Origin: Candidatus Staskawiczbacteria bacterium
GTDB lineage: Bacteria > Patescibacteriota > Minisyncoccia > Minisyncoccales > Staskawiczbacteraceae
DNA: 64,000 nt
Assembly: GCA_041661545.1 (NCBI GenBank)
Contig: JBAZUH010000001.1
Span: 275,877-339,876, forward strand
Direction of reading: 5' to 3'
The position numbers were made by a program, and so were the translations under genes. The notes beneath the pieces are model-generated. The model was not told where the DNA came from, did no database searches, and was given only the letters and a program-made list of their open reading frames with translations. Shown here piece after piece: positions 4,686 to 59,022 of the stretch (position 1 is its first letter; the number at the start of each line of letters is the position of its first letter).

Positions 4686-5095
4686 ATAAAAAAAGAGGGC
4701 TACACGAGTGTGTAGCCATGGCGAACGGGTTTAGGTGATGAGGAAGAGGTCTGAAAGACGGTAAGTGGATTGTAAATGATCTAAAAGATCCGGACGGCAG
4801 CAGGCAGAGCAGGGCGCGCTGAACAAATTTACGCGGTGAGTCCAGCGAACCCTTGGCGCTCAAGCCTGCCACCGTCCATTGGGAATAGTCAAAGCCATAT
4901 ACGGAGGACGATCCCCCCAGACAAGCCCCCGAGAGCCATTGACTTTTCCGAAATCGTTCAGGTCGGATGACGAATTATGAACAAAGCATACAGCCCTGAC
5001 AGAGGCGAAGCACCACCGAACGCAGTGCCACTTGTGCTCATATCTCGCTAACCGGCCTGAAAACTATTTACTATTCAAATAAACAATTTTCAGAA
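4686..5095 (-). ncRNA. rnpB: ~400-nt GC-rich structured RNA; best guess RNase P RNA (identity uncertain)
   Basis: About 50% GC in an AT-rich context. It contains a 13-bp helix (GACGGUGGCAGGC/GCCUGCUGCCGUC) enclosing nested helices, and UUCG-type hairpins. It ends in the intrinsic terminator GGCUACAC-ACUC-GUGUAGCC plus a U-run. Loose resemblance to RNase P: GAGCACAAGUGG...UAGAUCAUUUACAAUCCACUUAC with AAGUGG/CCACUU (P4-like) pairing, and AGGCUUGAGCG. Other conserved RNase P blocks were not recognised. Confidence 0.45.
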
Positions 5096-5140
5096 CAGTT
5101 AGAAGGGCCAGAACAACTTAACAATATCAAAAAAACAAAT

Positions 5141-6553
5141 TTAGGTCAACTTCTTTTCCATTTCTTGTGCAATAGCCAGTATTTTATTTTCTTCAAAATG
5201 ATTTCCTATAATTTGCAGTCCAACCGGCAAACCAGCTTCTGTTTTTCCTGCAGGCATTGATAAACCAGGCAAACCAGCTAATTTTAAAGGAATTGTATAA
5301 ATATCTGCTAAATACATTAAAAGTGGATCGTCTAACTTTTCACCCAACTTAAAAGCGGGAAATGGTGACACTGGGCAAAATAACAAATCAACTTTTTCAA
5401 ATGCTTTTGAAAAATCTTGACGAACCAACTGTCTAACCTCCTGTGCTTTTTTATAGTAAGCATCATAATATCCTGAAGATAAGCTATAGGTTCCCAACAT
5501 AATTCTTCTTTTTATTTCTGTACCAAATCCATGTCCTTTACTTTTTAGGTAAACATCCAATAAATCTCTTCCCTTCTCTGATAATCCATATTTTATTCCA
5601 TCAAGGCGCGCTAAATTTGCTGAAATTTCTGATGGACCAATAATATAATAACAGGCCAATGCATACTCTGTGCTAGGCAAGCTAATTTCTATAATTTTCG
5701 CGCCAGCACTTTCGGCTTTTTTAATTGCATTTCTAATTATCTTTTCAACTTCGGGCTCTAATCCTTTAGCAAAATATTCTTTTGGCACACCAATTTTTAA
5801 TCCTTCTAAATTTATTTTTAATTCCTCAAATTTATAATCAACTGATGTTGCATCCATTTTATCTTTTCCAGAAATAGCTTCAAAAACAATTTTACAATCT
5901 TCAACATTTTTTGCTATAGGACCTATTTGATCTAAAGATGAAGCATGTGCAACTAAACCATATCTTGATACAGCGCCATATGTTGGAGAAAATCCAACAA
6001 TACCACAAAAAGAAGCGGGCTGTCGTATCGACCCGCCAGTGTCAGAACCCAATGCATAAATTGATTCACCTGCGGTGACAGCTGCTACCGACCCGGAAGA
6101 TGTTCCACCAGGAACCCGTGTTTTATCGTGTGGATTTTTTGTAGCGCCGAATACTGATGTTTCTCCTGATGCACCCATAGCACTATCGTCTAAATTTGCT
6201 TTTCCTAGAAATACAGCTCCTTCTGCTTTTAACCTTGCTATAACTGTAGCATCATATGGTGCCACATAATTTTCTAAAATTTTTGAAGCAGCTGTGCATT
6301 TTATATCTTTAATTAAAATATTATCTTTTATAGCACATGGAATACCACAAAGCATGCCAAAATCACCTGTCTTAATTTTTTTATCTGCCTCTTCTGCCTG
6401 CTGTAACGCCAATTCTTCTGCAACAGTTATAAAAGTATTTAAATCACTCTTTTTTATTTTTTCTAAATAAGCTTTCGTTAAATCAACCGAAGTAAAATCT
6501 CCATTTTTAAGACCTTGGTGGGCTTGTTTAATTGTTAAATTAGTCAAATTCAT
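5141..6553 (-). CDS. gatA: Asp/Glu-tRNA amidotransferase subunit A
   Basis: Amidase signature GGTSSGSVAAV...GSDTGGSIRQPA. Directly downstream of gatC. Confidence 0.95.
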   Translation of the reverse strand: MNLTNLTIKQAHQGLKNGDFTSVDLTKAYLEKIKKSDLNTFITVAEELALQQAEEADKKIKTGDFGMLCGIPCAIKDNILIKDIKCTAASKILENYVAPYDATVIARLKAEGAVFLGKANLDDSAMGASGETSVFGATKNPHDKTRVPGGTSSGSVAAVTAGESIYALGSDTGGSIRQPASFCGIVGFSPTYGAVSRYGLVAHASSLDQIGPIAKNVEDCKIVFEAISGKDKMDATSVDYKFEELKINLEGLKIGVPKEYFAKGLEPEVEKIIRNAIKKAESAGAKIIEISLPSTEYALACYYIIGPSEISANLARLDGIKYGLSEKGRDLLDVYLKSKGHGFGTEIKRRIMLGTYSLSSGYYDAYYKKAQEVRQLVRQDFSKAFEKVDLLFCPVSPFPAFKLGEKLDDPLLMYLADIYTIPLKLAGLPGLSMPAGKTEAGLPVGLQIIGNHFEENKILAIAQEMEKKLT

Positions 6554-6921: not shown

Positions 6922-6950
6922 TTGACACCGCCAGCAATTATGTTAGTATT
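6922..6950 (+). promoter_or_regulatory. putative sigma70-type promoter of the Cys-rich mini-gene islet
   Basis: TTGACA at 6922-6927 followed 16 nt later by TAGTAT (or TATTAT at 19 nt). Confidence 0.4.
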
Positions 6951-6995
6951 ATTCTACTGAAGGTCTTGAACCTTTCCAACTCAACCCCGACTAAC

Positions 6996-7286
6996 ATGAA
7001 AGCATCTTTGTTAAAATTATTCCGCGCGCTACTCCAAGCGCTGCATGGTTTCTTTTGTGGACATACTTTTGCAATATCTTCAAATACATGCAACACTTGT
7101 GGCGTAGAATTATGCGGAAAAAGGCTCATTGAAGGTTTCTCTTTCGCCTGTAATTTACCAAAGGGCCATAAAGGGCAATGCGAAAATACTTTTGGGCAAG
7201 ATGCAATTTCAAGCTATCTCAGGGTTAATGGCGGAGGCCCTAAAATCAACGACAGTCGCGTCACCCATGAAACCACAAACTCATAG
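6996..7286 (+). CDS. small Cys/His-rich protein A (zinc-ribbon-like), GC-rich islet
   Basis: The ORF is open from 6966 (TTG), with the first ATG at 6996. Motif: CGHTFAISSNTCNTCGVELCGKRLIEGFSFACNLPKGHKGQCEN. The start codon is uncertain. Confidence 0.5.
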   Translation: MKASLLKLFRALLQALHGFFCGHTFAISSNTCNTCGVELCGKRLIEGFSFACNLPKGHKGQCENTFGQDAISSYLRVNGGGPKINDSRVTHETTNS

Positions 7287-7497
7287 ACACGCGCGACTTG
7301 GAAATCTTGCACATTGTGAAAGCTGTGGCGCTCCAATGTGCCTATCCCAACATCCATATCTGCTAGTGTGCTGCACGCGAGTAAGAGGACACTCAGGACA
7401 GTGCAACAACCCAAACTTTCTCAGCTTCACGAGCTGGGATCGACCAAGCGAGCAACACCCGAACCTCCCCACGCGTCTTGAACATCCAGCCTTTTAA
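7267..7497 (+). CDS. small Cys/His-rich protein B, paralog of protein A
   Basis: Motif HCESCGAPMCLSQHPYLLVCCTRVRGHSGQCNN repeats the C-x2-C-G-x3-C...C-x5-G-H-x-G-Q-C-x-N pattern of protein A, but in the +1 frame. The ATG at 7267 overlaps the end of A. The ORF is open from 7129. Confidence 0.5.
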   Translation: MKPQTHRHARLGNLAHCESCGAPMCLSQHPYLLVCCTRVRGHSGQCNNPNFLSFTSWDRPSEQHPNLPTRLEHPAF

Positions 7498-7586
7498 CTG
7501 ATTATTCTTGATTGTTTACCGCGCATGCATCGAATTTCTATTGGAAAACGATGCTTTTTTTATACTACAATACTCTTGATATAGCC

Positions 7587-10839: not shown

Positions 10840-11982
10840 TTACTGGAAGGCTGATTTTAAAAAATTATAAAGTAATGGCACGTCAAATCGTATAGTTATA
10901 AAAAGAGACAAAGCAATTAATATTATAAAAAATGTTACTGTAATTCTTTGCTCTAATTTTACTGAAACTGGTCTTCCTTTTATTTTTTCTAAAAATAAAA
11001 ATATCAATTTGCCTCCATCTAATGCTGGAATTGGAAATAAATTAAATATAGCAATAAGCACAGAAATCATTCCTATAAAATACAAGAAAAATCCTGCTCC
11101 ATAACTTGCCGCATTAGCTAAAAATACAGTAATTCCAATTGGTCCAGCTAATGAAGCGCCTGCTGGCAAGCCCTTATTTGAAAATAATCTAGCCAAAGTG
11201 TCGTATAAGCCAACTAGCGACTTTATAGTTACATCCCAAGTATAAATTACTCCTTGAACTGGAGCCATATACCAAGCAGTTTTTTTGATTAAAGTTGCCA
11301 TTCTTTCTAAACCAACTCCAACTGCCCCTTCTCCGGCTGGCGGATTAACTCTTGGTGTTATTTTTGCATCAAATATTTGAGGCTGGCCGTTAACAGTTCT
11401 TTCAATATTTAAAATTAACTCTTTTCCCTTATTTTCACCTGTTATTCTTTGAAAATCAGATATTTTATTAATATCTGTGTTAATATCGTTAACTTTTATG
11501 CTTTTTACTGTGTCGGCAATTTTTAATCCTGCCAAACCAGCTGGCGAAGTTGGCGATACAGAAACTATTTTTAATTTAGGGTTTGTTAATCCTTGCACTT
11601 CTTGATCGCCCACAGGCAAGTCAGCCCCTATGGCAAAAACAACAGAAAAAATAATTATAGCGGCAATCCAAAAAGCAGCTACTCCGCCAATTACAATTAA
11701 AACCCTTTTCCATATTTTTAAGTTTTGAAAACTTCTTAAATCATCTACTCCACCTTCTTCTCCAAAAATTCTAACAAATGCTCCAAGTGGTATCCAATTT
11801 ATAGAATAAATTGTTTCTCCAATTTTTTTGCCCCAAATTCGTGGCGGATATCCAATGCCAAATTCATCAACTCTAATCCCAAATTTTTTAGCAATAATAA
11901 AATGCCCATATTCATGAATAATCATTAAGGCTATTAAACATAGAAAGGCTATTACTAAAGTTAAAATTGTTGTAAAGACCAT
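10840..11982 (-). CDS. rseP: RIP metalloprotease RseP (site-2 protease, M50 with PDZ)
   Basis: HEYGHFIIAKKFG (HExxH), a central PDZ-like segment, and a C-terminal NLFPIPALDGG motif. Confidence 0.9.
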   Translation of the reverse strand: MVFTTILTLVIAFLCLIALMIIHEYGHFIIAKKFGIRVDEFGIGYPPRIWGKKIGETIYSINWIPLGAFVRIFGEEGGVDDLRSFQNLKIWKRVLIVIGGVAAFWIAAIIIFSVVFAIGADLPVGDQEVQGLTNPKLKIVSVSPTSPAGLAGLKIADTVKSIKVNDINTDINKISDFQRITGENKGKELILNIERTVNGQPQIFDAKITPRVNPPAGEGAVGVGLERMATLIKKTAWYMAPVQGVIYTWDVTIKSLVGLYDTLARLFSNKGLPAGASLAGPIGITVFLANAASYGAGFFLYFIGMISVLIAIFNLFPIPALDGGKLIFLFLEKIKGRPVSVKLEQRITVTFFIILIALSLFITIRFDVPLLYNFLKSAFQ

Positions 11983-12014
11983 ACGTTTATATTTTTATTT
12001 GGGTTATTTTATAC

Positions 12015-12043
12015 TTGACAATACTTATTTAATATGCTATGAT
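12015..12043 (+). promoter_or_regulatory. strong sigma70-type promoter with extended -10
   Basis: TTGACA (12015-12020), 17-nt spacer, TATGAT (12038-12043) preceded by TGc. Confidence 0.6.
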
Positions 12044-12114
12044 TAATGTATAGCGTTAATCACGCTTTTAGCACCCCCGCCGTGAGGACTCACGGCACAA
12101 CCCCAACCACCACC

Positions 12115-12300
12115 ATGAAACTGTTTATTGCCTTCCAGACATCCGCACTTCTTTGTGCGGTCAGCTCAGCCGTTCTTCTCTCCGGCTACATCCCCGATAC
12201 CACCAACAGCTTCAGGCTGTTTTACGGGATCTTAGCGGGATTTTTTGCCCTTAAGATGGAGGGCCACGCGATCGCGGAAAAAATCATCCACAAGTTGTAG
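12115..12300 (+). CDS. putative 61-aa hydrophobic peptide (alternatively part of a non-coding structured RNA)
   Basis: ATG at 12115 gives MKLFIAFQTSALLCAVSSAVLLSGYIPDTTNSFRLFYGILAGFFALKMEGH.... No RBS (C-rich leader). The region is packed with perfect hairpins, so coding status is uncertain. Confidence 0.35.
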   Translation: MKLFIAFQTSALLCAVSSAVLLSGYIPDTTNSFRLFYGILAGFFALKMEGHAIAEKIIHKL

Positions 12301-12367
12301 CACCCCGTGCTACAACCTATGCCCTGCTCTCGCAACTTCGGTTGCGATTGCGGGGCTCTTTTTTTAT
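12293..12367 (+). terminator. double-hairpin intrinsic terminator
   Basis: GTTGTAGCAC-CCC-GTGCTACAAC, then GCCC..TCGCAAC-TTCG-GTTGCGA..GGGC, followed by a T-run. Confidence 0.75.
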
Positions 12368-12382
12368 TTCAAAATTCTGATT

Positions 12383-12420
12383 CTTACCAGTTACTCGTTA
12401 CCGGTTACTAGTTACTAATC
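12383..12420. repeat. family-3 GTAAC-rich repeat
   Basis: CTTACCAGTTACTCGTTACCGGTTACTAGTTACTAATC. Its reverse complement carries GTAACCGGTAACGAGTAACTGGTAA, as at 27063 and 32906. Confidence 0.7.
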
Positions 12421-12421
12421 C

Positions 12422-12976
12422 CTATACTAATTCTTGCTTTTTCTTCTCAACTAATGTTTTCATTTTTTCTTGGTATTGGTCAACTATTTTTTGAAGCTCA
12501 TCTTTGCCCCTAAATTTGTCATCTTCCGACATTTCTTTTGCTTTTTCTGCTGATTGAATTTTATTCCAAACATCTTCTCTTTGCCTGCGTATTACTTGCT
12601 TTGCTTGTTCTGCTTTTTCATTTAAAACTTTGCCCAAAGATAATCTATATTCTTCAGTAAGCATTGGCAAATTTAATCTAATTAAATTTTTATCAACGAC
12701 ACAAGACATACCCAACCCAGATTGAGCCATAGCCTTTTCTATTGGTTCTATGTACGAAGTGTCCCAGGGCTGTATAACTATTTGATTGTTAGAAGGAGTA
12801 GAAATTGATCCTAGCTGTTTTATTGTAAACTTTTGACCAAAAGCATTAACCTCTATGTCTTCAACCAAAGCTGGCGAAGCCCTTGAGGTTCTTATTTTAG
12901 CTAATTCAGCTTCTAAAAATTTAAATGATTTCTCAAATTCTGGCTTAGCTCTGTCTATGAATTCTTTATATGTCAT
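12422..12976 (-). CDS. frr: ribosome recycling factor
   Basis: 184 aa with ...LAKIRTSRASPALVEDIEV...LNLPMLTEE.R... pattern. Confidence 0.95.
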   Translation of the reverse strand: MTYKEFIDRAKPEFEKSFKFLEAELAKIRTSRASPALVEDIEVNAFGQKFTIKQLGSISTPSNNQIVIQPWDTSYIEPIEKAMAQSGLGMSCVVDKNLIRLNLPMLTEEYRLSLGKVLNEKAEQAKQVIRRQREDVWNKIQSAEKAKEMSEDDKFRGKDELQKIVDQYQEKMKTLVEKKKQELV

Positions 12977-12982
12977 AAATTG

Positions 12983-13058
12983 AAGCGAGGCAATGAGATT
13001 TTTCGAAGCTTGTTGTGCGAAGCGAATAAGTGCGAAGAAAAATCTTGTTGCCGAGCGA
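12983..13058. repeat. family-1 palindromic element
   Basis: AAGCGAGGCAATGAGATTTTTCGAAGC...GCGAAGAAAAATCTTGTTGCCGAGCGA. Near-identical to the copy at 23106. Fills the holB-frr spacer. Confidence 0.9.
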
Positions 13059-13060
13059 AA

Positions 13061-13819
13061 TTATAATTCCATCAGCACTATTTCCAAAGCTAATTTGGGA
13101 TTAGCGTTTGTAAATATTAATTTGTTATTTATATCTTCTATTAAACTTAAAATTTTTATTACTTTCTTTTGCGAATAATCTTTTAGTAATATTTCTCTAT
13201 AGTATTTTTGCAAAACTTCTAAAATTTCTGTCGGCTCTTGTTTATCAAAATCTATTGATTTTACATATTTAAATTTTTCTGCAAGATTAGAATCAATTAT
13301 TGGCAACAATTCTTGTAAAATTTCGCTTTCTTTTTTTGCTCTTTCAGAGTTTTTTGGTAAATTTTTTGGTTTAAAAAATTTTAATGTTTGGCACCTAGAA
13401 GCTATGGTTGCCATAAGCATGTCGGGCTTTGAAGTTATCAAAATAATTAATGTTTGACCCTTTGGCTCTTCTAAAGTTTTTAAAAAACAACTTTGCGCCT
13501 CAACATTCATTTTTTCGGCATCTTCAACAATTACCACCTTATATCCCCCATTATAAGACTTATATGAAAGAAAATTTTGAACCTCTCTTATTTGTAAAAT
13601 TTTTATTTCTCCCCCATCTCCAAACTTTGGATCTTTTTTGTTAGCCTCCGACACAATTAATAAATCGGGAAACTTGCAACCAATAAATTCTGCAAATTCT
13701 TTGGCAAAAGCTCTTTTTCCTATTTCTTTTTGGCCAACAAACAAATATGCATGCGAAAGCTGATTCAACTCAAACTTCTTTTTTAAAATATCCCATTGTT
13801 TTTTATGTCCTATCATCAT
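13061..13819 (-). CDS. holB: DNA polymerase III subunit delta'
   Basis: HAYLFVGQKEIGKRAFAKEFA...VVIVEDAEKMNVEAQSCFLKTLEEP...SRCQ AAA+ clamp-loader motifs. Confidence 0.85.
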   Translation of the reverse strand: MMIGHKKQWDILKKKFELNQLSHAYLFVGQKEIGKRAFAKEFAEFIGCKFPDLLIVSEANKKDPKFGDGGEIKILQIREVQNFLSYKSYNGGYKVVIVEDAEKMNVEAQSCFLKTLEEPKGQTLIILITSKPDMLMATIASRCQTLKFFKPKNLPKNSERAKKESEILQELLPIIDSNLAEKFKYVKSIDFDKQEPTEILEVLQKYYREILLKDYSQKKVIKILSLIEDINNKLIFTNANPKLALEIVLMEL

Positions 13820-13832
13820 ACTTAAGGTCTTT

Positions 13833-13987
13833 AGCGAGGCAATGAATTCGTAGCGAACCCTGCAGGCAATTTTGCAAGGTTCCGCGAAGCGGAAAAATTG
13901 CCGAAGCCTGAGTGAGTTGCGCGCTGGCGCAATGAACGCTAGCGAAGAATCATTGCCGAGCGAAAAATTTATTGCCGAGCGAAAAAA
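13833..13987. repeat. family-1 composite or nested palindromic element
   Basis: AGCGAGGCAATGAATTCG...GGCAATTTTGC..GCGGAAAAATTGCC...GAATCATTGCCGAGCGAAAAATTTATTGCCGAGCGAAAAAA. Fills the mreB2-holB spacer. Confidence 0.85.
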
Positions 13988-14995
13988 CTATTTCTTTGAC
14001 ATTACAACTTTTTTGTATTCTTCCAAATTTTCAAGAACTACTCCTGTTCCTTTTACCACACAGAAAATTGGTTCTTCGGCTATAAAACAAGGCACTCCTG
14101 TGCTTTGAGCAATTAATTCGTTAATTTTAGGCAATAATGCTCCCCCGCCAGCCATAATAATTCCCTTATTCATTATATCGGCAGAAAGCTCTGGTGGAGT
14201 TTCGGCTAAAACATGTTTTACTGCTTGCACAATTTCGGCTAAAACATCTGATATTGCTTCGCAAACTTCATTATTTGATATTTTTATATTTCTTGGCAAT
14301 CCCAAAATTAAATCTCTGCCCTGTATTTCTAAAAATCTTAATTCTTTTTGTGGAAGTGCTGTACCAATTTTTATTTTTATTTCTTCGGCTGATTGTGTTC
14401 CAATTGCAAGATTATATTTTTTCTTAATGTACTCGCCAATAGCTGTGTCTATTTTATCTCCGGCAATTCTTATAGAATGCCAAACAACAATGCCCCCTAA
14501 AGAGATAACTGCAACTTCTGTTGTGCCCCCACCAATGTTAATTATCATATGACCAGAACAAGAATTAATAGGAATGCCCGCTCCTATAGCAGCTAAAATG
14601 GGTTCTTTGGCAACATATACTTGTTTTGCACCAGCTACCAAAGATGCTTCAATAACAGCTCTTCTTTCTGTGCTACTAATGCCTGCAGGAACCGAAACAA
14701 CTAACTCTGGTTTAAATACTTTTAATCCTGAGTTAGTTTTGTTTATAAAATAATTAATCATTGCTCTAGTTACTCTATAATCAGCAATAACTCCATCCTT
14801 CAACGGTCTATAAACTTTAATATCAGCAGGAGTTCTTCCAATCATTTCTTTTGCACCCTCACCCACTGCTAATATTTTATTATCAGCTAAAGAAATAGCC
14901 ACTACAGAAGGTTCATATAAAACCACCCCCTTGCCATGTACATATACAAGCGAGTTACATGTTCCTAAATCAATTGCAATTTTGTTACTAAACAT
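13988..14995 (-). CDS. mreB: rod shape-determining protein MreB (paralog 2)
   Basis: IAIDLGTCNSLVYV, NIGGGTTEVAVISLGG, MAGGGALL. Confidence 0.9.
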   Translation of the reverse strand: MFSNKIAIDLGTCNSLVYVHGKGVVLYEPSVVAISLADNKILAVGEGAKEMIGRTPADIKVYRPLKDGVIADYRVTRAMINYFINKTNSGLKVFKPELVVSVPAGISSTERRAVIEASLVAGAKQVYVAKEPILAAIGAGIPINSCSGHMIINIGGGTTEVAVISLGGIVVWHSIRIAGDKIDTAIGEYIKKKYNLAIGTQSAEEIKIKIGTALPQKELRFLEIQGRDLILGLPRNIKISNNEVCEAISDVLAEIVQAVKHVLAETPPELSADIMNKGIIMAGGGALLPKINELIAQSTGVPCFIAEEPIFCVVKGTGVVLENLEEYKKVVMSKK

Positions 14996-39801: not shown

Positions 39802-40998
39802 TTATTTGACAATTTTGGTTACAACTCCGGCTCCGACTGTTTTTCCTCCTTCTCTAATAGCAAATTTACTCTTTTCTTCCAAAGCAACTGGCACAATTAA
39901 TTTAACTTTTAATTGAGCTGTGTCGCCAGGCATTACCATTTCTGTTCCTTCTGGCAATGTTACGTCTCCAGTAATATCAGATGTTCTAATATAAAGTTGT
40001 GGTTTGTATCCTGAGAAAAATGGAGTATGTCTTCCTCCTTCATCTTTAGATAAAACATAAACTTCTGCATCAAATTCTGTGTGAGGAGTAATAGAGCCTG
40101 GTTTGCAAAGAACTTGACCTCTTTCAATGTCTTCTTTTTTCAAACCTCTTAACAAAATTCCAACGTTATCTCCTGCCCTTCCTTCGTCTAAGCTCTTTTG
40201 GAACATTTCAACTGAAACAACAACTGCTTTTTGAGTTGGTCTTAATCCAACAATTTCAATTTCTTCGTTTGGATGAATAACTCCTCTTTCAATTCTTCCG
40301 GTTGCAACTGTTCCTCTTCCTTCAATAGAGAATACATCTTCAATAGCCATTGAAAATGGTTTGTCTAATTCTCTTGCTGGTTCGGGAATATAATTATCGC
40401 AAGCATCTAATAATTCTATAACTGGTTTAGCTGCTGGGTCATCGGCTGAAGTTGCTTCTAATGCTTTTGTAGCAGAACCTCTTATAATAGGAGTTTCATC
40501 TCCTGGGTAACCGTTTTTCTTTAATAATTCTCTAATTTCTGATTCAACTAAATCCAAAATTTCTGGATCATCAACCATATCGCATTTGTTCATAAATACC
40601 AATAATGATGGCAATCCAACTTGTCTAGCTAAAAGAATGTGCTCTTTTGTTTGTGGCATTGGGCCGTCTGGCGCAGATACTAAAAGAATACCTCCGTCCA
40701 TTTGAGCGGCTCCTGTAATCATGTTTTTAATATAGTCGGCGTGACCTGGGCAGTCAATTAAAGCATAGTGCCTTTTTGGTGTTTCACACTCTAAGTGAGT
40801 AATAGAAATGGTAACTCCTCTAGATTTTTCTTCTGGTGAAGCATCAATTTGATCAACGTTTCTGTCGGATGATTTCATTCCTCGCAATTTTGAAACTTTC
40901 ATAATTGCTGCAGACAATGTAGTTTTTCCGTGGTCAACGTGACCAATTGTACCTATGTTTACGTGAGGTTTAGACCTCTCAAATTTTTCTGTTGCCAT
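39802..40998 (-). CDS. tuf: elongation factor Tu
   Basis: [22 protein letters not shown] and SA(T)KAL GTPase motifs. 398 aa. Confidence 0.98.
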
Positions 40999-41219
40999 TT
41001 TTACTTTTTGTCTGACGCCATAGACCTGGCGACAGATATTATTAATTTATTATTTTTTTATTTATTAATTTTTTTTAACGTATTATTATATTATTATATT
41101 ATTTTATATAAGTCAATAGTTTCTATGACAAATTACAAAACATTGACTTTATTAACATTTCAATTATACTTTATTATCAGCTATTTGACAATATACACCC
41201 ACAAAAAAGAGATAATGTC

Positions 41220-41540
41220 GTGAACAAACAAAACTTGCCCGTTACAAATCTTCGCTGCTTAAGAGACCCACATTTCTTGAAACATCCATGGCATGCGGGC
41301 CATTGTTCGTATGTTGGTTCGATAGATCCAAGAAGGGCTCACGAGCTACGCATGCGGAATAAACGCGCTGGCGGAATGGCCTTCGCAATGGTCGAAAGGC
41401 TTGAAAAATCAACCTGGGGTCCAGGGATCAAAATTAACGCCTCGCAAAGAAATTTTATAATTCGGGAAATCAAAGCGCTCGTGATGAGCACTTTTCCGCC
41501 AATGCCACCAACTAATCTCGAAGAAAGGAACACAAAATGA
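41220..41540 (+). CDS. islet ORF1, basic small protein (GTG start)
   Basis: 106-aa ORF in the ~50% GC cassette. Its stop overlaps the ORF2 start (ATGA). The tail is ...STFPPMPPTNLEE. ACACCCACAAA lies 25 nt upstream. Confidence 0.45.
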   Translation: MNKQNLPVTNLRCLRDPHFLKHPWHAGHCSYVGSIDPRRAHELRMRNKRAGGMAFAMVERLEKSTWGPGIKINASQRNFIIREIKALVMSTFPPMPPTNLEERNTK

Positions 41541-41869
41541 GAGACCGACTTATTGCTATCGCACGGAAGGCAGTTGGAAATACACGATTTATAGTAATTT
41601 CGCAAAAGGGTGATTACCTACGCGTCACACTAGATGGGTTTGATGTTGGAACTTTTATAAAACGTGGAGGCGGCGGCTATAGCTCAGATAACATGTTACT
41701 AGCCGAATCCATTCTCGGCTTAGAGCACCCACCCGAACCCGCACCCGCACCAGCACCAGCCGAATCAATCGAATTCGACGACGTTAGCGTCGAAGTGGGA
41801 GAAGGACTATTTGATGGAATCCCAGAGTGGGGTGAAGGCGAAGACGAGGACGCCGACGAAATTCCGTGA
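41537..41869 (+). CDS. islet ORF2, small protein with Pro-rich linker and acidic tail
   Basis: Preceded by GAAAGGAACACAAAATG. ...LGLEHPPEPAPAPAPAESIEFDDVSVEVGEG...EGEDEDADEIP. Confidence 0.55.
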   Translation: MRDRLIAIARKAVGNTRFIVISQKGDYLRVTLDGFDVGTFIKRGGGGYSSDNMLLAESILGLEHPPEPAPAPAPAESIEFDDVSVEVGEGLFDGIPEWGEGEDEDADEIP

Positions 41870-41908
41870 AATTTCAAACACCCACAAATTAGCGAAAAGA
41901 AAATCAAA

Positions 41909-42109
41909 ATGGCGGAAGAAAAAGTAACTGTTAAAATTAGACGAAGGAACAGAATCGCCGGAATTTCTGTTGCCAACGACATGATTAAATCCGGGTGGAC
42001 AGTTTCAGGGTTCGAACTTGTCGTTCCTCAAGGAACCAACATATACTTTGAACGGGAAATTCCCGACCCCCCAACAAGCTTCCCAGACTGCAATCAGAGG
42101 GGCCGGTAG
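41909..42109 (+). CDS. islet ORF3, small DUF4177-like module protein
   Basis: ...MIKSGWTVSGFELVVPQGTNIYFEREIPDPPTSFP. Module shared with ORF4 and ORF5. ACACCCACAAA lies 31 nt upstream. Confidence 0.55.
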   Translation: MAEEKVTVKIRRRNRIAGISVANDMIKSGWTVSGFELVVPQGTNIYFEREIPDPPTSFPDCNQRGR

Positions 42110-42147
42110 TATAATTACCAAACCAACGATCTGAAAGGAATACGGAA

Positions 42148-42360
42148 ATGAAATACGATCCAATATTGCTTAGCAGCGATGATATGAATAGATTCAGAAC
42201 AGATCTAATAAATATGGGAGAGGAAGGTTATCACACGATAGGCTTCCACGCAATCTCTAACTCTAGCGGAGTCACGTTGTATGCCCTAATGGAAAAGGAA
42301 CTTCCCAGCGACCCTCCTAACAACCTTCCCAAGCCACACCCCGAAGAACCCGTGGTATAA
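42148..42360 (+). CDS. islet ORF4, small DUF4177-like module protein
   Basis: Preceded by GAAAGGAATACGGAAATG. ...INMGEEGYHTIGFHAISNSSGVTLYALMEKELPSDPPNNLP. Confidence 0.55.
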   Translation: MKYDPILLSSDDMNRFRTDLINMGEEGYHTIGFHAISNSSGVTLYALMEKELPSDPPNNLPKPHPEEPVV

Positions 42361-42403
42361 CAATTAACTACTAATCCAGTAGAAAGCCGAAAGGAACACG
42401 AAA

Positions 42404-42868
42404 ATGAAAAAGTGGGAATATACAATTTTCTTTTTCCCTAAAGAAAAGATAGAATCAATACAAGGCCTCAGCAAATTTGGAAAAGAAGGCTGGCGAGTGA
42501 TACACGTAAGTGAAAACATGTTCGCCGCTTTACTCGAGCGGGAAATTCCCGAAACGGAAGAACCCGCGCCAAAAGCTCGCAAGAAGCTAACCGAACTTCC
42601 TGCCGAACAACTAGCGCCGGCGCCAGATTCTCCGGGCCAATGCAAATTGAATATGGATGAACAACCCCATCTAGATTGGTCCGCATCCAAACCAGCGCCG
42701 GCCGAATCAGTCGGCTTAGACGTCGCTGGCCACGACGAACATGGTTGCACATACGGACCAGTGGCCAAAACCACACCGCAAGCGCCGGCTTCTCCGGATA
42801 AAACCGGCGCGTATCCAGCATTTCCAAGCTGGGAAGAAGACGACGACAATCTTCGAGAAAATCAGTGA
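42404..42868 (+). CDS. islet ORF5, DUF4177-like N-terminal module plus long disordered Pro/Ala/acidic tail
   Basis: Preceded by GAAAGGAACACGAAAATG. MKKWEYTIFFFPKEKIESIQGLSKFGKEGWRVIHVSENMFAALLEREIPETEEP. The tail contains KPAPAESVGLDV, as in ORF2. Confidence 0.6.
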   Translation: MKKWEYTIFFFPKEKIESIQGLSKFGKEGWRVIHVSENMFAALLEREIPETEEPAPKARKKLTELPAEQLAPAPDSPGQCKLNMDEQPHLDWSASKPAPAESVGLDVAGHDEHGCTYGPVAKTTPQAPASPDKTGAYPAFPSWEEDDDNLRENQ

Positions 42869-42875
42869 ACCCTAT

Positions 42876-42901
42876 GCTCCAAAATTTGGAGCTCTTTTTT
42901 T
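42876..42901 (+). terminator. intrinsic terminator of the plus-strand cassette
   Basis: GCTCCAAA-A-TTTGGAGC followed by TCTTTTTTT, 8 nt after the ORF5 stop. Confidence 0.75.
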
Positions 42902-42970: not shown

Positions 42971-45046
42971 TTACTTTCTTTTTCCGTCGATAATTTCTTG
43001 AGCTATATTAGCAGGAACTTGTTCATAACTATTAAATTCCATATTAAAACTTGCTCGGCCCTCTGTTAAAGATCTTATAGATGTAGCGTATCCAAATGTT
43101 TCTGACAAAGGCACCTCAGCATCTACAACTTTCATGCCAGCTCTTTCTGAAGTTTCTTTAATTTGTCCTCTTCGTGAGCTTATATCAGAAATAACTTGTC
43201 CAAAAAAGTCTTCTGGGGTTACAACTTCCATTTTCATAACTGGCTCTAATATAACAGGCTTGGCAGCTTTGGCAGCTTTTTGAAATGCCATTGAACCTGC
43301 AATTTTAAAAGCAAATTCAGATGAGTCAACTTCGTGGAAAGATCCATCATATAAAGTAACCTCAACATCAACCATTGGATATCCAGCAACAACCCCCTTA
43401 TCCATAGCTTCTACAACTCCTTTTTCAACTGGTTTAATAAATTCTTTTGGAATTGAACCTCCTCTAATTTCATCTACAAATTCAAATCCAGCTCCCCTTT
43501 CTTTTGGCTTAACAGTTAACATAACGTGACCGTATTGTCCTTTACCACCCGATTGTCTGGCATATTTTTCTTCTCCGTTAGCTTCCATAGTAATTGTTTC
43601 TCTATAAGCTACTTGAGGTTTTCCATAATTAGCTTCAACGTGAAACTCTCTTCTCAATCTATCTGCAATAATATCTAAGTGCAATTCTCCCATACCAGAA
43701 ATAATTGTTTCGCCGGTTTCCAAATCTTCTTTAATTCTAAAGGTTGGATCTTCTTCTGTAAGTTTTCTAATAGACATAATAAGTTTTTCTTGGTCAACTT
43801 TTGTTTTTGGTTCAACCCTAATTCCAATAACTGGTTCTGGAAATACAATTTTTTCTAAAATAACTGGAGCTGATTTGTCGCACAATGTATGCCCAGTGCT
43901 GGTTGCTTTTAACCCAACTGTAGCTCCAATTTCTCCTGCATAAATAATATCAAGTTCTTGCCTTTCATCGGCGTGCATTCTTAAAATTCTAGCAATTCTT
44001 TCTTGCTCTCCGGTATTTGCATTCAAAACATAACTACCTTTTTGTAAAAATCCAGAATAAACTCTAAAAAAGGTTAATGTTCCAACATATGGATCGGTTG
44101 CAATTTTAAACACCAAAGCTGAAAATGGTTCTGTGTCTGAAGAGTTTCTTTCTATTACAGCCCCTGTTTTTGGGTCTGTTCCTTGCTGAGCTGGAACTTC
44201 TAATGGTGAAGGCAATAATTCTACAACTGCATCTAAAATTGTCTGCACTCCCTTGTTTTTTAAAGCACTTCCACAAAAAACAGGAATTAATTTATAATTT
44301 AAAACTGATTTTCTTAAAACATTTTTAATTTCTTCTGTTGTTATTTCTTTTCCTTCTAAAAATTTCTCTGTTAATGCATCATCTTCTCCGGCAATTTTTT
44401 CAATCATTTTTTTGTGCCATACATCGGCTTCGGCTTTCCATTCTTCGGGAATTTCTTTTTCAACTATATTAATTCCTTTTTCTCCTTCAAAATAAAGAGC
44501 TTTCATTTTCATTAAATCAACAACTCCGGCTAAATTTTCTTCTGTTCCCATTGGAAAAGAAACTGCAACTGCATTTGGAGTTAATTTTGTTAAAATTGAT
44601 TGAAAACTTTTATCAAAAGAAGCTCCCATTCTATCTAGCTTGTTTACAAAGCAAATTCTAGGAACATTATATTTATCAGCTTGTCTCCAAACTGTTTCAG
44701 ACTGTGGTTCTACTCCGGCAACACCATCAAACACAACCACTGCTCCGTCTAAAACTCTTAATGAGCGTTGAACTTCGGCGGTAAAATCAATGTGACCAGG
44801 TGTGTCAATTAAGTTTATTTGATGATCTCTCCAATACATAGTTGTAGCAGCAGAGGTAATTGTTATACCCCTTTCTCTTTCTTGAACCATCCAATCCATA
44901 ACTGCCTCTCCTTCGTGAACTTCTCCAATTTTGTGAGAAACTCCCGTATAAAAAAGCAAACGCTCGGAAAAAGTAGTTTTTCCTGCGTCTATATGAGCAA
45001 TAATACCTATGTTTCTTAATTTATCTAAAGGATGTTGTCTTGACAT
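42971..45046 (-). CDS. fusA: elongation factor G
   Basis: [22 protein letters not shown] and NKLD GTPase motifs. 691 aa. Confidence 0.98.
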
Positions 45047-57921: not shown

Positions 57922-59022
57922 CTACTTGATAATACCCCCGCCTAAAACTTGGCTACCCTTGTAAAATACTGCGGATTGGCCTTGTGCCAAGGCTTTGCCT
58001 AATTTTTTAAAAACTAATTTTCCATCCTTATACAGAATGGCTTTTTGTAAAGGGGCTCTATATCTAGTTCTAACATCCATTAATACCGGAAAAATCTCCG
58101 GTTTATTTATCCAACTAATATTTATTATTTTAGCTTCTTTTACAGCCAAATCTTTCTCTGTGCCCACATATATAATATTTTTCTTTATATCTTTTTTAAC
58201 AACAAAATACGGCCCGTGCCCATTTTTTATATCTAATCCATGTCTTTGCCCAATTGTATAATAATAGACACCGTCATGCTTCCCTATTTTTTTACCATCA
58301 ATAGAAATTATTTCTCCTATTTTTGGTTTTATATACATTTTTAAGAAATTTTTCATATCAAACTGCCCAACAAAGCAAACGCCTTGACTATCTTTTTTTT
58401 CAGCATTTTCTAATTTAAATTTTTTAGCTAATTTTCTAACTTCTGGTTTTTCTAAATTACCTACTGGAAATAAAATTTTATTAAGTTGCTTTTGTTTTAA
58501 TGTATATAAAAAATATGTTTGATCTTTATTAGCATCAACCGCTTTTAACAAGCGAGGCAATGAACTTTTTCGAGAAGAGGGTGCCCCGTAGAGAGGCTCT
58601 CCTCGCAGAAAAAGTTTATTGCCGAGCGAAGTTTGCGCATAATGACCAGTTGCAACAAAATCAAAACCTTGTTTCATTGCTTTATCAAAAAAATAACCAA
58701 ATTTAATAATTTTATTACACATTACATCGGGGTTTGGAGTAATCCCCTTTTTATAAGAATCAATCATATACTTACCAACTTCTGTTTCATATTCTTTAGA
58801 AAAATCCCAAGTTAAAAAGGGAATTCCTAGCTTAGCGCAAGCTCTCATGGCATCTTGTCTATCTGCTTTCCAAATACATTCTTTTTCCAGAATTTCTGGA
58901 GACCATTGACGCATATAAATTCCAACTACATTAAAACCAGCTTTTTTTAACAAAGCTGCTGAAACGCTAGAATCTACTCCGCCAGACATAGCACATGCAA
59001 CTCTAACCATAATATTTTTCAA
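57922..59022 (-). CDS. mnmA: tRNA 2-thiouridine(34) synthase MnmA, carrying an in-frame repeat insertion
   Basis: CAMSGGVDSSV PP-loop, ATGHYAQ, NKDQTYFLY. The segment SLGNKLFLRGEPLYGAPSSRKSSLPRL is encoded by a family-1 element. Confidence 0.9.
   Translation of the reverse strand: MKNIMVRVACAMSGGVDSSVSAALLKKAGFNVVGIYMRQWSPEILEKECIWKADRQDAMRACAKLGIPFLTWDFSKEYETEVGKYMIDSYKKGITPNPDVMCNKIIKFGYFFDKAMKQGFDFVATGHYAQTSLGNKLFLRGEPLYGAPSSRKSSLPRLLKAVDANKDQTYFLYTLKQKQLNKILFPVGNLEKPEVRKLAKKFKLENAEKKDSQGVCFVGQFDMKNFLKMYIKPKIGEIISIDGKKIGKHDGVYYYTIGQRHGLDIKNGHGPYFVVKKDIKKNIIYVGTEKDLAVKEAKIINISWINKPEIFPVLMDVRTRYRAPLQKAILYKDGKLVFKKLGKALAQGQSAVFYKGSQVLGGGIIK
58550..58630. repeat. family-1 palindromic element inserted in frame in mnmA
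   Basis: AAGCGAGGCAATGAACTTTTTCGAGAAGAGGGTGCCCCGTAGAGAGGCTCTCCTCGCAGAAAAAGTTTATTGCCGAGCGAA. 81 nt, 27 codons, no stop in the mnmA frame. Confidence 0.85.

Follow-up and report, generated by a model that had tools for sequence, protein, structure and literature searches.

A 64,000-nucleotide stretch of a Candidatus Staskawiczbacteria genome (contig JBAZUH010000001.1, positions 275,877 to 339,876 of the forward strand; in the following, the window) carries a plus-strand unit (positions 12015–12367 of the window) between rseP and frr, both of which are on the minus strand. With a probability of about 0.7, we interpret this unit as a moron-like mini-gene, acquired horizontally, that encodes an ORFan membrane peptide with two helices and is served by a conserved promoter and leader specific to this slot. 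It consists of a promoter, two leader hairpins, an open reading frame (ORF) of 61 codons, two 3' hairpins and a U7 tract (Table 1). The unit is inserted at an operon junction, its homology to the corresponding DNA of relatives is mosaic, its leader is conserved and covaries, and the statistics of its ORF are of the coding type. The original prediction, made from the letters alone, had left the choice between a hydrophobic-peptide gene and a structured RNA. The former is favoured by the small protein genes that occupy the slot of relatives behind the same promoter and leader, together with the coding-type composition, the best codon-model frame and the non-random hydrophobicity of the ORF itself.

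The signals named in the original prediction are present. The near-consensus extended −10 promoter TTGACA-N17-TATGAT with its upstream TG scores 11/12 and is the best promoter-like site in 11500–13000. The frame is open from the ATG at 12115 to the TAG, and the double-hairpin terminator has the expected 10 bp perfect stem, UUCG-capped stem and T7 run. The neighbouring genes match Peptidase_M50 and RRF, and the core genes that flank the locus within the window are proS, rseP, frr, holB, mreB and murA. All of the perfect hairpins that had been listed were found in place, with one correction: the one described as CCGTGAG-GA-CTCACGG with a 2 nt loop is really a 6–7 bp stem with a 4 nt loop. The GC content of the unit is foreign to the host. 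It amounts to 0.49–0.53 in segments of 100 nt and peaks at 0.57 in segments of 120 nt, compared with 0.2–0.4 in the flanks, 0.33 in the flanking genes and 0.34 in the whole window.

Comparative evidence comes from the same junction in relatives. The host belongs to the candidate phyla radiation (CPR; Parcubacteria), and the best matches of its ribosome recycling factor (RRF, encoded by frr) are also from Candidatus Staskawiczbacteria. With the RRF protein we found 75 genome and 80 metagenome loci, 129 of which carry both frr and rseP. The two genes are less than 60 nt apart in 90 of these 129, often only 0–20 nt, and thus form an operon junction, which leaves it empty in about 70% of relatives; the other 39 contain inserts of several kinds. 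An opposite-strand cassette resembling the window unit is present in 11 loci (L002, L007, L012, L016/L137, L053, L085, L087, L089, L103 and L131), each time with a TTGACA-type promoter, a small ORF and a hairpin followed by a T-run. The ORFs of these 11 cassettes are mutually unrelated. That of L007 is a DUF4177 member (33.3 bits against a gathering score of 25) and L002 gives a partial match to the same family, those of L087 and L089 are Cys-rich, those of L012, L053 and L131 encode hydrophobic peptides and the others have no family.

At the DNA level, the window unit matches L002 and L007 only from the promoter through the leader, ending about 7 nt short of the ATG (77% identity over 107 nt with L002), and L131 only in the terminator (78% over 51 nt). 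Unrelated ORFs are therefore found between homologous regulatory ends, the window sharing its promoter and leader with L002 and its terminator with L131. The promoter and the two-hairpin leader are common to the window, L002, L007 and L087, and the sequence of the promoter spacer is homologous in L002, L007, L085 and L087. First 3' hairpins analogous to hairpin A of the window occur in L085, L087 and L089. Since three relatives share promoter and leader with the window yet encode unrelated proteins, the frr–rseP junction appears to be a slot for mRNA expression in which the ORF can be swapped.

The leader is folded more stably than its shuffled counterparts (z = −3.8), and both hairpins, hp1 and hp2, are present in the minimum free energy structure as well as in the centroid structure. 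The distance from hp2 to the ATG is 18–26 nt in the window, L002, L007 and L087. Going outward from the loop, the stem of hp2 is CCGUGA/UCACGG both in the window and in L002, whereas L007 has CCGCUA/UAGCGG and L087 has UUGCGA/UCGCGA, such that three pairs are altered on both sides without loss of pairing. One further pair, a U·G in L087, can form on the plus strand only. A covariance model of the leader run on the window and 99 loci (589 kb) returned only its four training members, a single copy of the promoter pattern is present in the window even when three mismatches are tolerated, and blastn of the unit against the window gave nothing. As the model finds only these four instances and the promoter is unique in the window, the leader is an orthologous, slot-specific element and not a dispersed repeat. 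Two further routes to leader-bearing cassettes were followed. The promoter pattern has nine matches in viral contigs, which are generic AT-rich promoters without the leader and hence uninformative, and a search for DUF4177 homologues of the L007 ORF returned only that ORF.

The promoter/leader block abuts the start codon of rseP, at a distance of 32 nt here and of 2–20 nt in L002, L007, L087 and L089, and it is conserved while the ORFs change. On the minus strand of 11983–12421 there is no promoter-like site of at least 9/12, thus none for rseP and none for an antisense RNA. The block could then serve mainly rseP, by uncoupling it from frr or by regulating it, with the ORF being secondary. We give this idea little credence: most relatives manage with a direct frr–rseP junction, every occupied slot has an intact ORF and terminator, and the U·G pair in hp2 of L087 points to function on the plus strand. 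A contribution to rseP expression would in any case be compatible with the mini-gene interpretation and would not exclude it.

In a tree based on frr and rseP, occupied slots are interleaved with empty ones, and L002 is the sister of L001, in which the slot is empty. This scattered distribution indicates repeated gain, loss or exchange. The same junction in L112 (3052–4959) contains a 1.9 kb insertion on the frr strand that encodes proteins of 425 and 165 amino acids (NYN/LabA-like by eye), so larger cargo is accepted there as well.

The composition of the ORF is that of a coding sequence. GC at the three codon positions is 0.45, 0.37 and 0.68, compared with about 0.2 at third positions in host genes, and T reaches 0.41 at position 2 and C 0.43 at position 3. 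Trained on the ORFs of other islands and cassettes, 17 in all, a codon model placed 14 of them in the correct frame in leave-one-out tests, with one of the misses due to a coordinate error. It gives the ORF +10.3 bits, the best of six frames (−19.7 to +2.7 for the other five) and within the range that true ORFs obtain in the leave-one-out tests. The log-likelihood ratio of island versus host codon usage is +63 bits. The mean Kyte–Doolittle (KD) hydropathy of the peptide, 0.84, is reached in 0.09% of shuffles (p = 0.0009). AlphaFold2, run on the single sequence, predicts a helix at residues 3–25, a turn at IPD and a second helix at residues 29–60, with a predicted local distance difference test (pLDDT) score of 79. 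The product is probably a membrane protein and is predicted to fold as a two-helix hairpin.

None of Pfam, PHROGs, PADLOC and NCBIfam matches the peptide, nor does the DUF4177 profile (PF13783), and BLASTP against the two-transmembrane peptides that L131 and L053 carry in this slot gives no significant match. The slot ORF of L007, a DUF4177 member, likewise returned only itself in an index of 5.8 billion proteins. As both the L007 and the window ORF match only themselves, the pool of such small ORFs is either extremely diverse or poorly sampled.

Several observations weigh against the mini-gene interpretation. An open frame of this length is reached in 8.4% of shuffles. The second helix is only moderately hydrophobic, and one clear transmembrane segment is obtained at a threshold of KD ≥ 1.5 over 17 residues. 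A word-indexed search of 5.8 billion clustered proteins with the peptide finds only the peptide itself, an exhaustive phmmer search of 1.84 billion representative proteins adds spurious matches to repeat proteins, and IMG/VR contains no homologue. The lack of homologues means that purifying selection acting on the ORF cannot be demonstrated. The covariation in the leader comes from four sequences of three types. The interior of the ORF, taken alone, folds somewhat better than its shuffles (z = −2.3 to −2.5). The transcription start, the stabilisation of the mRNA, its translation and the insertion of the product into the membrane are all predictions from sequence.

The locus is lineage-specific and patchy, its ORF is an ORFan and the slot also collects non-coding palindromic repeats, as would be the case if a horizontal insertion had left a neutral or decaying remnant in which promoter and terminator survive around an ORF without a selected function. 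We consider this unlikely. The promoter is near consensus, and the conserved leader hairpins and the terminator are intact. The open frame fills precisely the space between leader and terminator and shows coding-like composition and hydrophobic periodicity. The GC-rich composition is unameliorated, suggesting that the sequence is either recent or maintained.

Folding of the whole unit differs strongly from shuffled sequences (z = −6.4 on the plus strand and −5.8 on the other strand). Together with the GC-rich island in an AT-rich genome, the several perfect small hairpins within an ORF interior that itself folds better than chance, and the missing protein homologue, this might be taken to indicate a novel structured non-coding or dual-function RNA, with a GC-rich transcript of about 315 nt acting as RNA and the ORF being incidental. 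The whole-unit score is however driven by the leader and the terminators. Interiors of bona fide coding cassettes give comparable values (−2.1 for L007, with its real DUF4177 gene, −2.4 for L087 and −3.4 for L103), while host gene segments lie around 0. Since true coding cassettes behave in the same way, the interior hairpins do not single out an RNA function, and we rejected them as evidence for one; the structured RNA that had been proposed from hairpin density loses its footing, as only the leader and terminator are conserved. The interior is conserved in no relative, and the same leader drives true protein genes. The excess of C over G (111 C and 74 G), the asymmetry between codon positions and the clear preference for one frame also argue for coding. 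Rfam 15 at the gathering threshold detects only two tRNAs in the whole window, both of them elsewhere, and at E ≤ 10 the region 11900–12500 gives sub-threshold chance matches, the best of 19.7 bits against a gathering score of 39. The Infernal/Rfam scan proposed at the outset thus assigned no family to the unit; RNase P RNA, small RNAs and riboswitches were covered as well as tmRNA, 6S RNA and signal recognition particle RNA. ARAGORN finds no tmRNA. In the original prediction, the unit could not be matched by eye to tmRNA, signal recognition particle RNA or 6S RNA. A functional RNA is in our judgement very unlikely.

The lack of a ribosome-binding site had also been pointed out. This is correct, and it carries no information: a strong Shine–Dalgarno (SD) sequence within 20 nt of the start is found in only one of 51 long host ORFs in the window, and host genes generally lack one. 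The leaders of genes in the window are AT-rich and G-poor, which is consistent with a Parcubacteria lineage that initiates independently of SD sequences. Only 48% of Parcubacteria 16S rRNAs were found to carry an anti-SD motif, which is absent from a subgroup (PMC9297842). The 18 nt that precede the AUG (12097–12114) are G-free, CA-rich and unpaired in the leader fold, which would suit SD-independent initiation. Gene finders and readers should therefore not expect a ribosome-binding site in this genome. Because such hosts initiate without SD sequences, the locus is a clean example of a GC-rich, hairpin-rich sequence without a ribosome-binding site that is no evidence for a non-coding RNA in CPR genomes.

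From these elements a mode of expression can be proposed. Transcription would be strong and probably constitutive, with a predicted start at about 12050. The 5'-terminal hairpin and hp2 would stabilise the mRNA against 5'-end-dependent decay; 5' stem-loops are established mRNA stabilisers, for example in ompA and aprE. The ribosome would start at the first AUG, in the G-free, unpaired, CA-rich stretch, without the help of an SD sequence, and the product is likely to enter the membrane in the form of a helical hairpin. The two 3' hairpins would end transcription ahead of the essential frr gene and so keep it from being read antisense. As to the role of the peptide, the analogy with phage morons and other accessory small membrane proteins leads us to favour an envelope-level accessory function, which may be exclusion, defence or the modulation of membrane proteins.

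On the minus strand, hairpin A forms 15 pairs followed by GAUGAUUUUUU. This terminator-like site (12321..12289) looks like a marginal terminator for frr, and read-through antisense to the cassette is possible. If leaky, it would let the convergent frr/rseP transcription yield antisense RNA. With a small hydrophobic peptide, a strong promoter and a structured 5' leader, the unit could thus be type I toxin–antitoxin-like, the peptide being a membrane toxin whose mRNA is held in check by structure and antisense RNA. We think this quite unlikely. Read-through from frr would be the sole source of antisense RNA, as no minus-strand promoter-like site of at least 9/12 lies within the unit. The start codon is unpaired and not sequestered, and searches of Pfam, NCBIfam and PADLOC give no toxin-family match. 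In relatives, soluble proteins of the DUF4177 and Cys-rich kinds are expressed from the same slot and leader, so this regulatory frame is not toxin-specific. Type I toxins usually have about 60 residues or less, and 61 residues with two helices is at or above this size. Compared with Hok/Sok, TisB/IstR and Fst, the unit shares the small hydrophobic peptide, the stand-alone, strongly promoted transcript and the structured 5' untranslated region; it differs in that it has no cognate antisense small-RNA gene, an open start codon and no family homology, and in that the slot hosts non-hydrophobic proteins as well. Membership of this class is not supported.

Among the closest known counterparts are the morons. 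These are defined as extra DNA between neighbouring genes, with its own promoter and terminator and a deviant GC content (PMC3594210); gene 15 of HK97 is an example, and the archetype, gp15, is a small inner-membrane protein (Juhala et al. 2000; PMC3594210). Like a moron, the unit is an addition between genes that are adjacent in relatives, has its own σ70 promoter and factor-independent terminator, differs in GC content from its neighbours and carries a small ORF of unknown origin. Unlike a moron, it is located between two core cellular genes of a CPR bacterium and not in a phage or prophage, and searches that included PHROGs and IMG/VR found no phage or viral relatives. Its structured leader, conserved across genomes while the ORF differs, is a further difference.

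The promoter(early)–stem-loop (PeSL) elements of T4-type phages consist of strong σ70-like promoters, paired with stem-loop terminators, that bracket small ORFans in hyperplastic regions lying among conserved core genes (PMC2839356, PMC4122927). The exchange of unrelated ORFs between homologous regulatory ends, with the resulting mosaic pattern, is common to both. PeSL motifs are however present in many copies per phage genome, whereas the motif of the unit occurs once in the window and only in this slot in 589 kb; moreover, the genome is cellular, and neither a mini-circle nor another recombination mechanism is evident. Membership was rejected, as the promoter/leader motif is not repeated within the stretch examined. 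Integron cassettes resemble the unit in their fixed promoter, their variable and often ORFan cassette and their hairpin-forming end, and differ in that the unit is single and not part of an array. Direct reading of 12290–12420 shows no attC cores (RYYYAAC/GTTRRRY), and the adjacent genes are frr and rseP, with no integrase adjacent; integrases were not looked for in the remainder of the window. The unit was accordingly not classified as an integron cassette.

Table 1. Coordinates of features of the rseP/frr unit, its neighbours and other islands in the window.
Feature	Position	Strand	Remarks
−35 element TTGACA	12015-12020	+	followed by 17 nt spacer
Extended −10 element TGcTATGAT	12035-12043	+	σ70-type
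5' leader	12050..12114	+	hp1, linker, hp2, CA-rich stretch up to AUG
Leader hairpin hp1, AGCGU/ACGCU	12052-12056 / 12062-12066	+	5 bp, 5'-terminal
Linker UUUAGCACCCCC	within leader	+	conserved; after hp1, before hp2
Leader hairpin hp2, GCCGUGA-GGAC-UCACGGC	12079-12085 / 12090-12096	+	6–7 bp stem, 4 nt GGAC loop
ORF, 61 amino acids, MKLFIAFQTSALLCAVSSAVLLSGYIPDTTNSFRLFYGILAGFFALKMEGHAIAEKIIHKL	ATG 12115 to TAG 12298-12300	+	ORFan, predicted two-helix hairpin
Peptide segment LFYGILAGFFALK			example for detection by proteomics
Interior hairpin CCGCAC-N6-GTGCGG	12143-12160	+	direct reading
Interior hairpin CAGC-N5-GCTG	12207-12219	+	direct reading
Interior hairpin CGCGATCGCG	12267-12276	+	direct reading
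3' hairpin A, GTTGTAGCAC-CCC-GTGCTACAAC	12294-12316	+	perfect 10 bp; stop codon lies within
Intrinsic terminator, GCCCUGC..UCGCAAC-UUCG-GUUGCGA..GCGGGGC	12321-12356; U7 12359-12365	+	UUCG-capped composite hairpin
rseP	10840-11982	-	Peptidase_M50, RseP-type; flanking core gene
frr	12422-12976	-	RRF; flanking core gene, convergent with cassette
Tandem heptamer repeat, TTACTAG-like	12384..12417		4.9 copies; between terminator and frr stop codon
GC-rich island	6922-7560	+	opposite strand to neighbours; promoter TTGACA-16-TAGTAT with TG at 6922
Two tandem overlapping Cys-rich ORFs	ATG 6996..7286, ATG 7267..7497	+	motif C-x2-CG...C.C..P.GH.G.CE/N
Hairpin and T7 after Cys-rich ORFs	~7525-7560	+	
GC-rich insertion, 1.7 kb	41140-42900	+	str-operon junction, tuf (39802..40998) / fusA (42971..45046); opposite strand
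Five consecutive small ORFs	41220..42868	+	terminator 42876-42892
Palindromic repeats	12985-13057, 13807-14001, ~55899, 58552-58628		

Two other plus-strand islands in the window, likewise set between core genes of the minus strand, have the same character. The first Cys-rich ORF of 6922–7560 is related to the slot ORF of L089 (BLASTP E = 2e-8), and neither Cys-rich ORF of this island matches Pfam. The last ORF of 41140–42900 (MKKWEYTI...GKEGWRVIHV) resembles the DUF4177 ORF of L007 at its N-terminus (E = 1e-4), below Pfam significance. Since these islands encode protein families that are seen in the slot of relatives, opposite-strand, GC-rich small-gene islets are recurrent in this genome, and the rseP/frr unit is one of them.

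The unit itself is a hypothetical small membrane-protein gene and as such ordinary; the slot, with its conserved leader and variable ORF, is its most interesting aspect. We tentatively entertain, as a possibility that is doubtful at present, that frr/rseP is a dedicated slot in which a conserved strong promoter, a covarying leader and a terminator are retained while unrelated GC-rich small ORFs are repeatedly exchanged, in other words a system for cassette exchange that is analogous to the PeSLs of phages, to morons or to integrons and is located in a cellular CPR genome. The ORFs exchanged may include DUF4177 proteins, Cys-rich proteins, two-helix membrane peptides and ORFans, and may be of the same kinds as in the 6922–7560 and 41140–42900 islets. 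Such a system may have no recognisable recombinase. Horizontal gene transfer and genomic islands are documented in Patescibacteria generally (PMC12455944), and we came across no account of such micro-slots in the literature. It appears that streamlined CPR genomes maintain micro-slots between essential genes, where small ORFs of foreign composition are gained, lost and swapped downstream of a promoter and leader that are conserved. If this is general, it would offer ultra-small symbionts a route to diversify their envelope or accessory small proteins, and for organisms not yet open to manipulation, the leader would be a candidate for a portable element of expression or stability.

The minus strand at 4690–5150 offers a better candidate than the rseP/frr unit for a structured RNA that has not been described. 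This GC-rich unit of about 420 nt adjoins tRNA-Ile and folds with z = −6.7 and long-range helices. It has a TG-extended promoter-like site (5149..5121) and a terminator (4717..4698) with a T-run, and it contains no convincing ORF, the longest (63 amino acids, GTG start) running through the terminator. Rfam gives no match to it even at E ≤ 1.

Two kinds of repeat also populate the frr/rseP slot. Heptamer arrays like the one downstream of the terminator in the window are present in L043, L085, L094, L126 and L142, where they are AT-rich, (A/T)TTCTAAT, with long inverted repeats; they are candidates for a protein-binding array or for an element resembling a miniature inverted-repeat transposable element (MITE). 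The second kind are GC-rich, nested palindromic intergenic repeats with GCGAGGCAAT...ATTGCCGAGCG termini, similar to repetitive extragenic palindromic (REP) or MITE sequences, which occur in several intergenic regions of the window. They form inserts of 90–175 nt between frr and rseP in L014, L077, L081, L086, L098, L099, L125 and L143, and the repeat of L125 matches window positions 13895–13962 at 78%.

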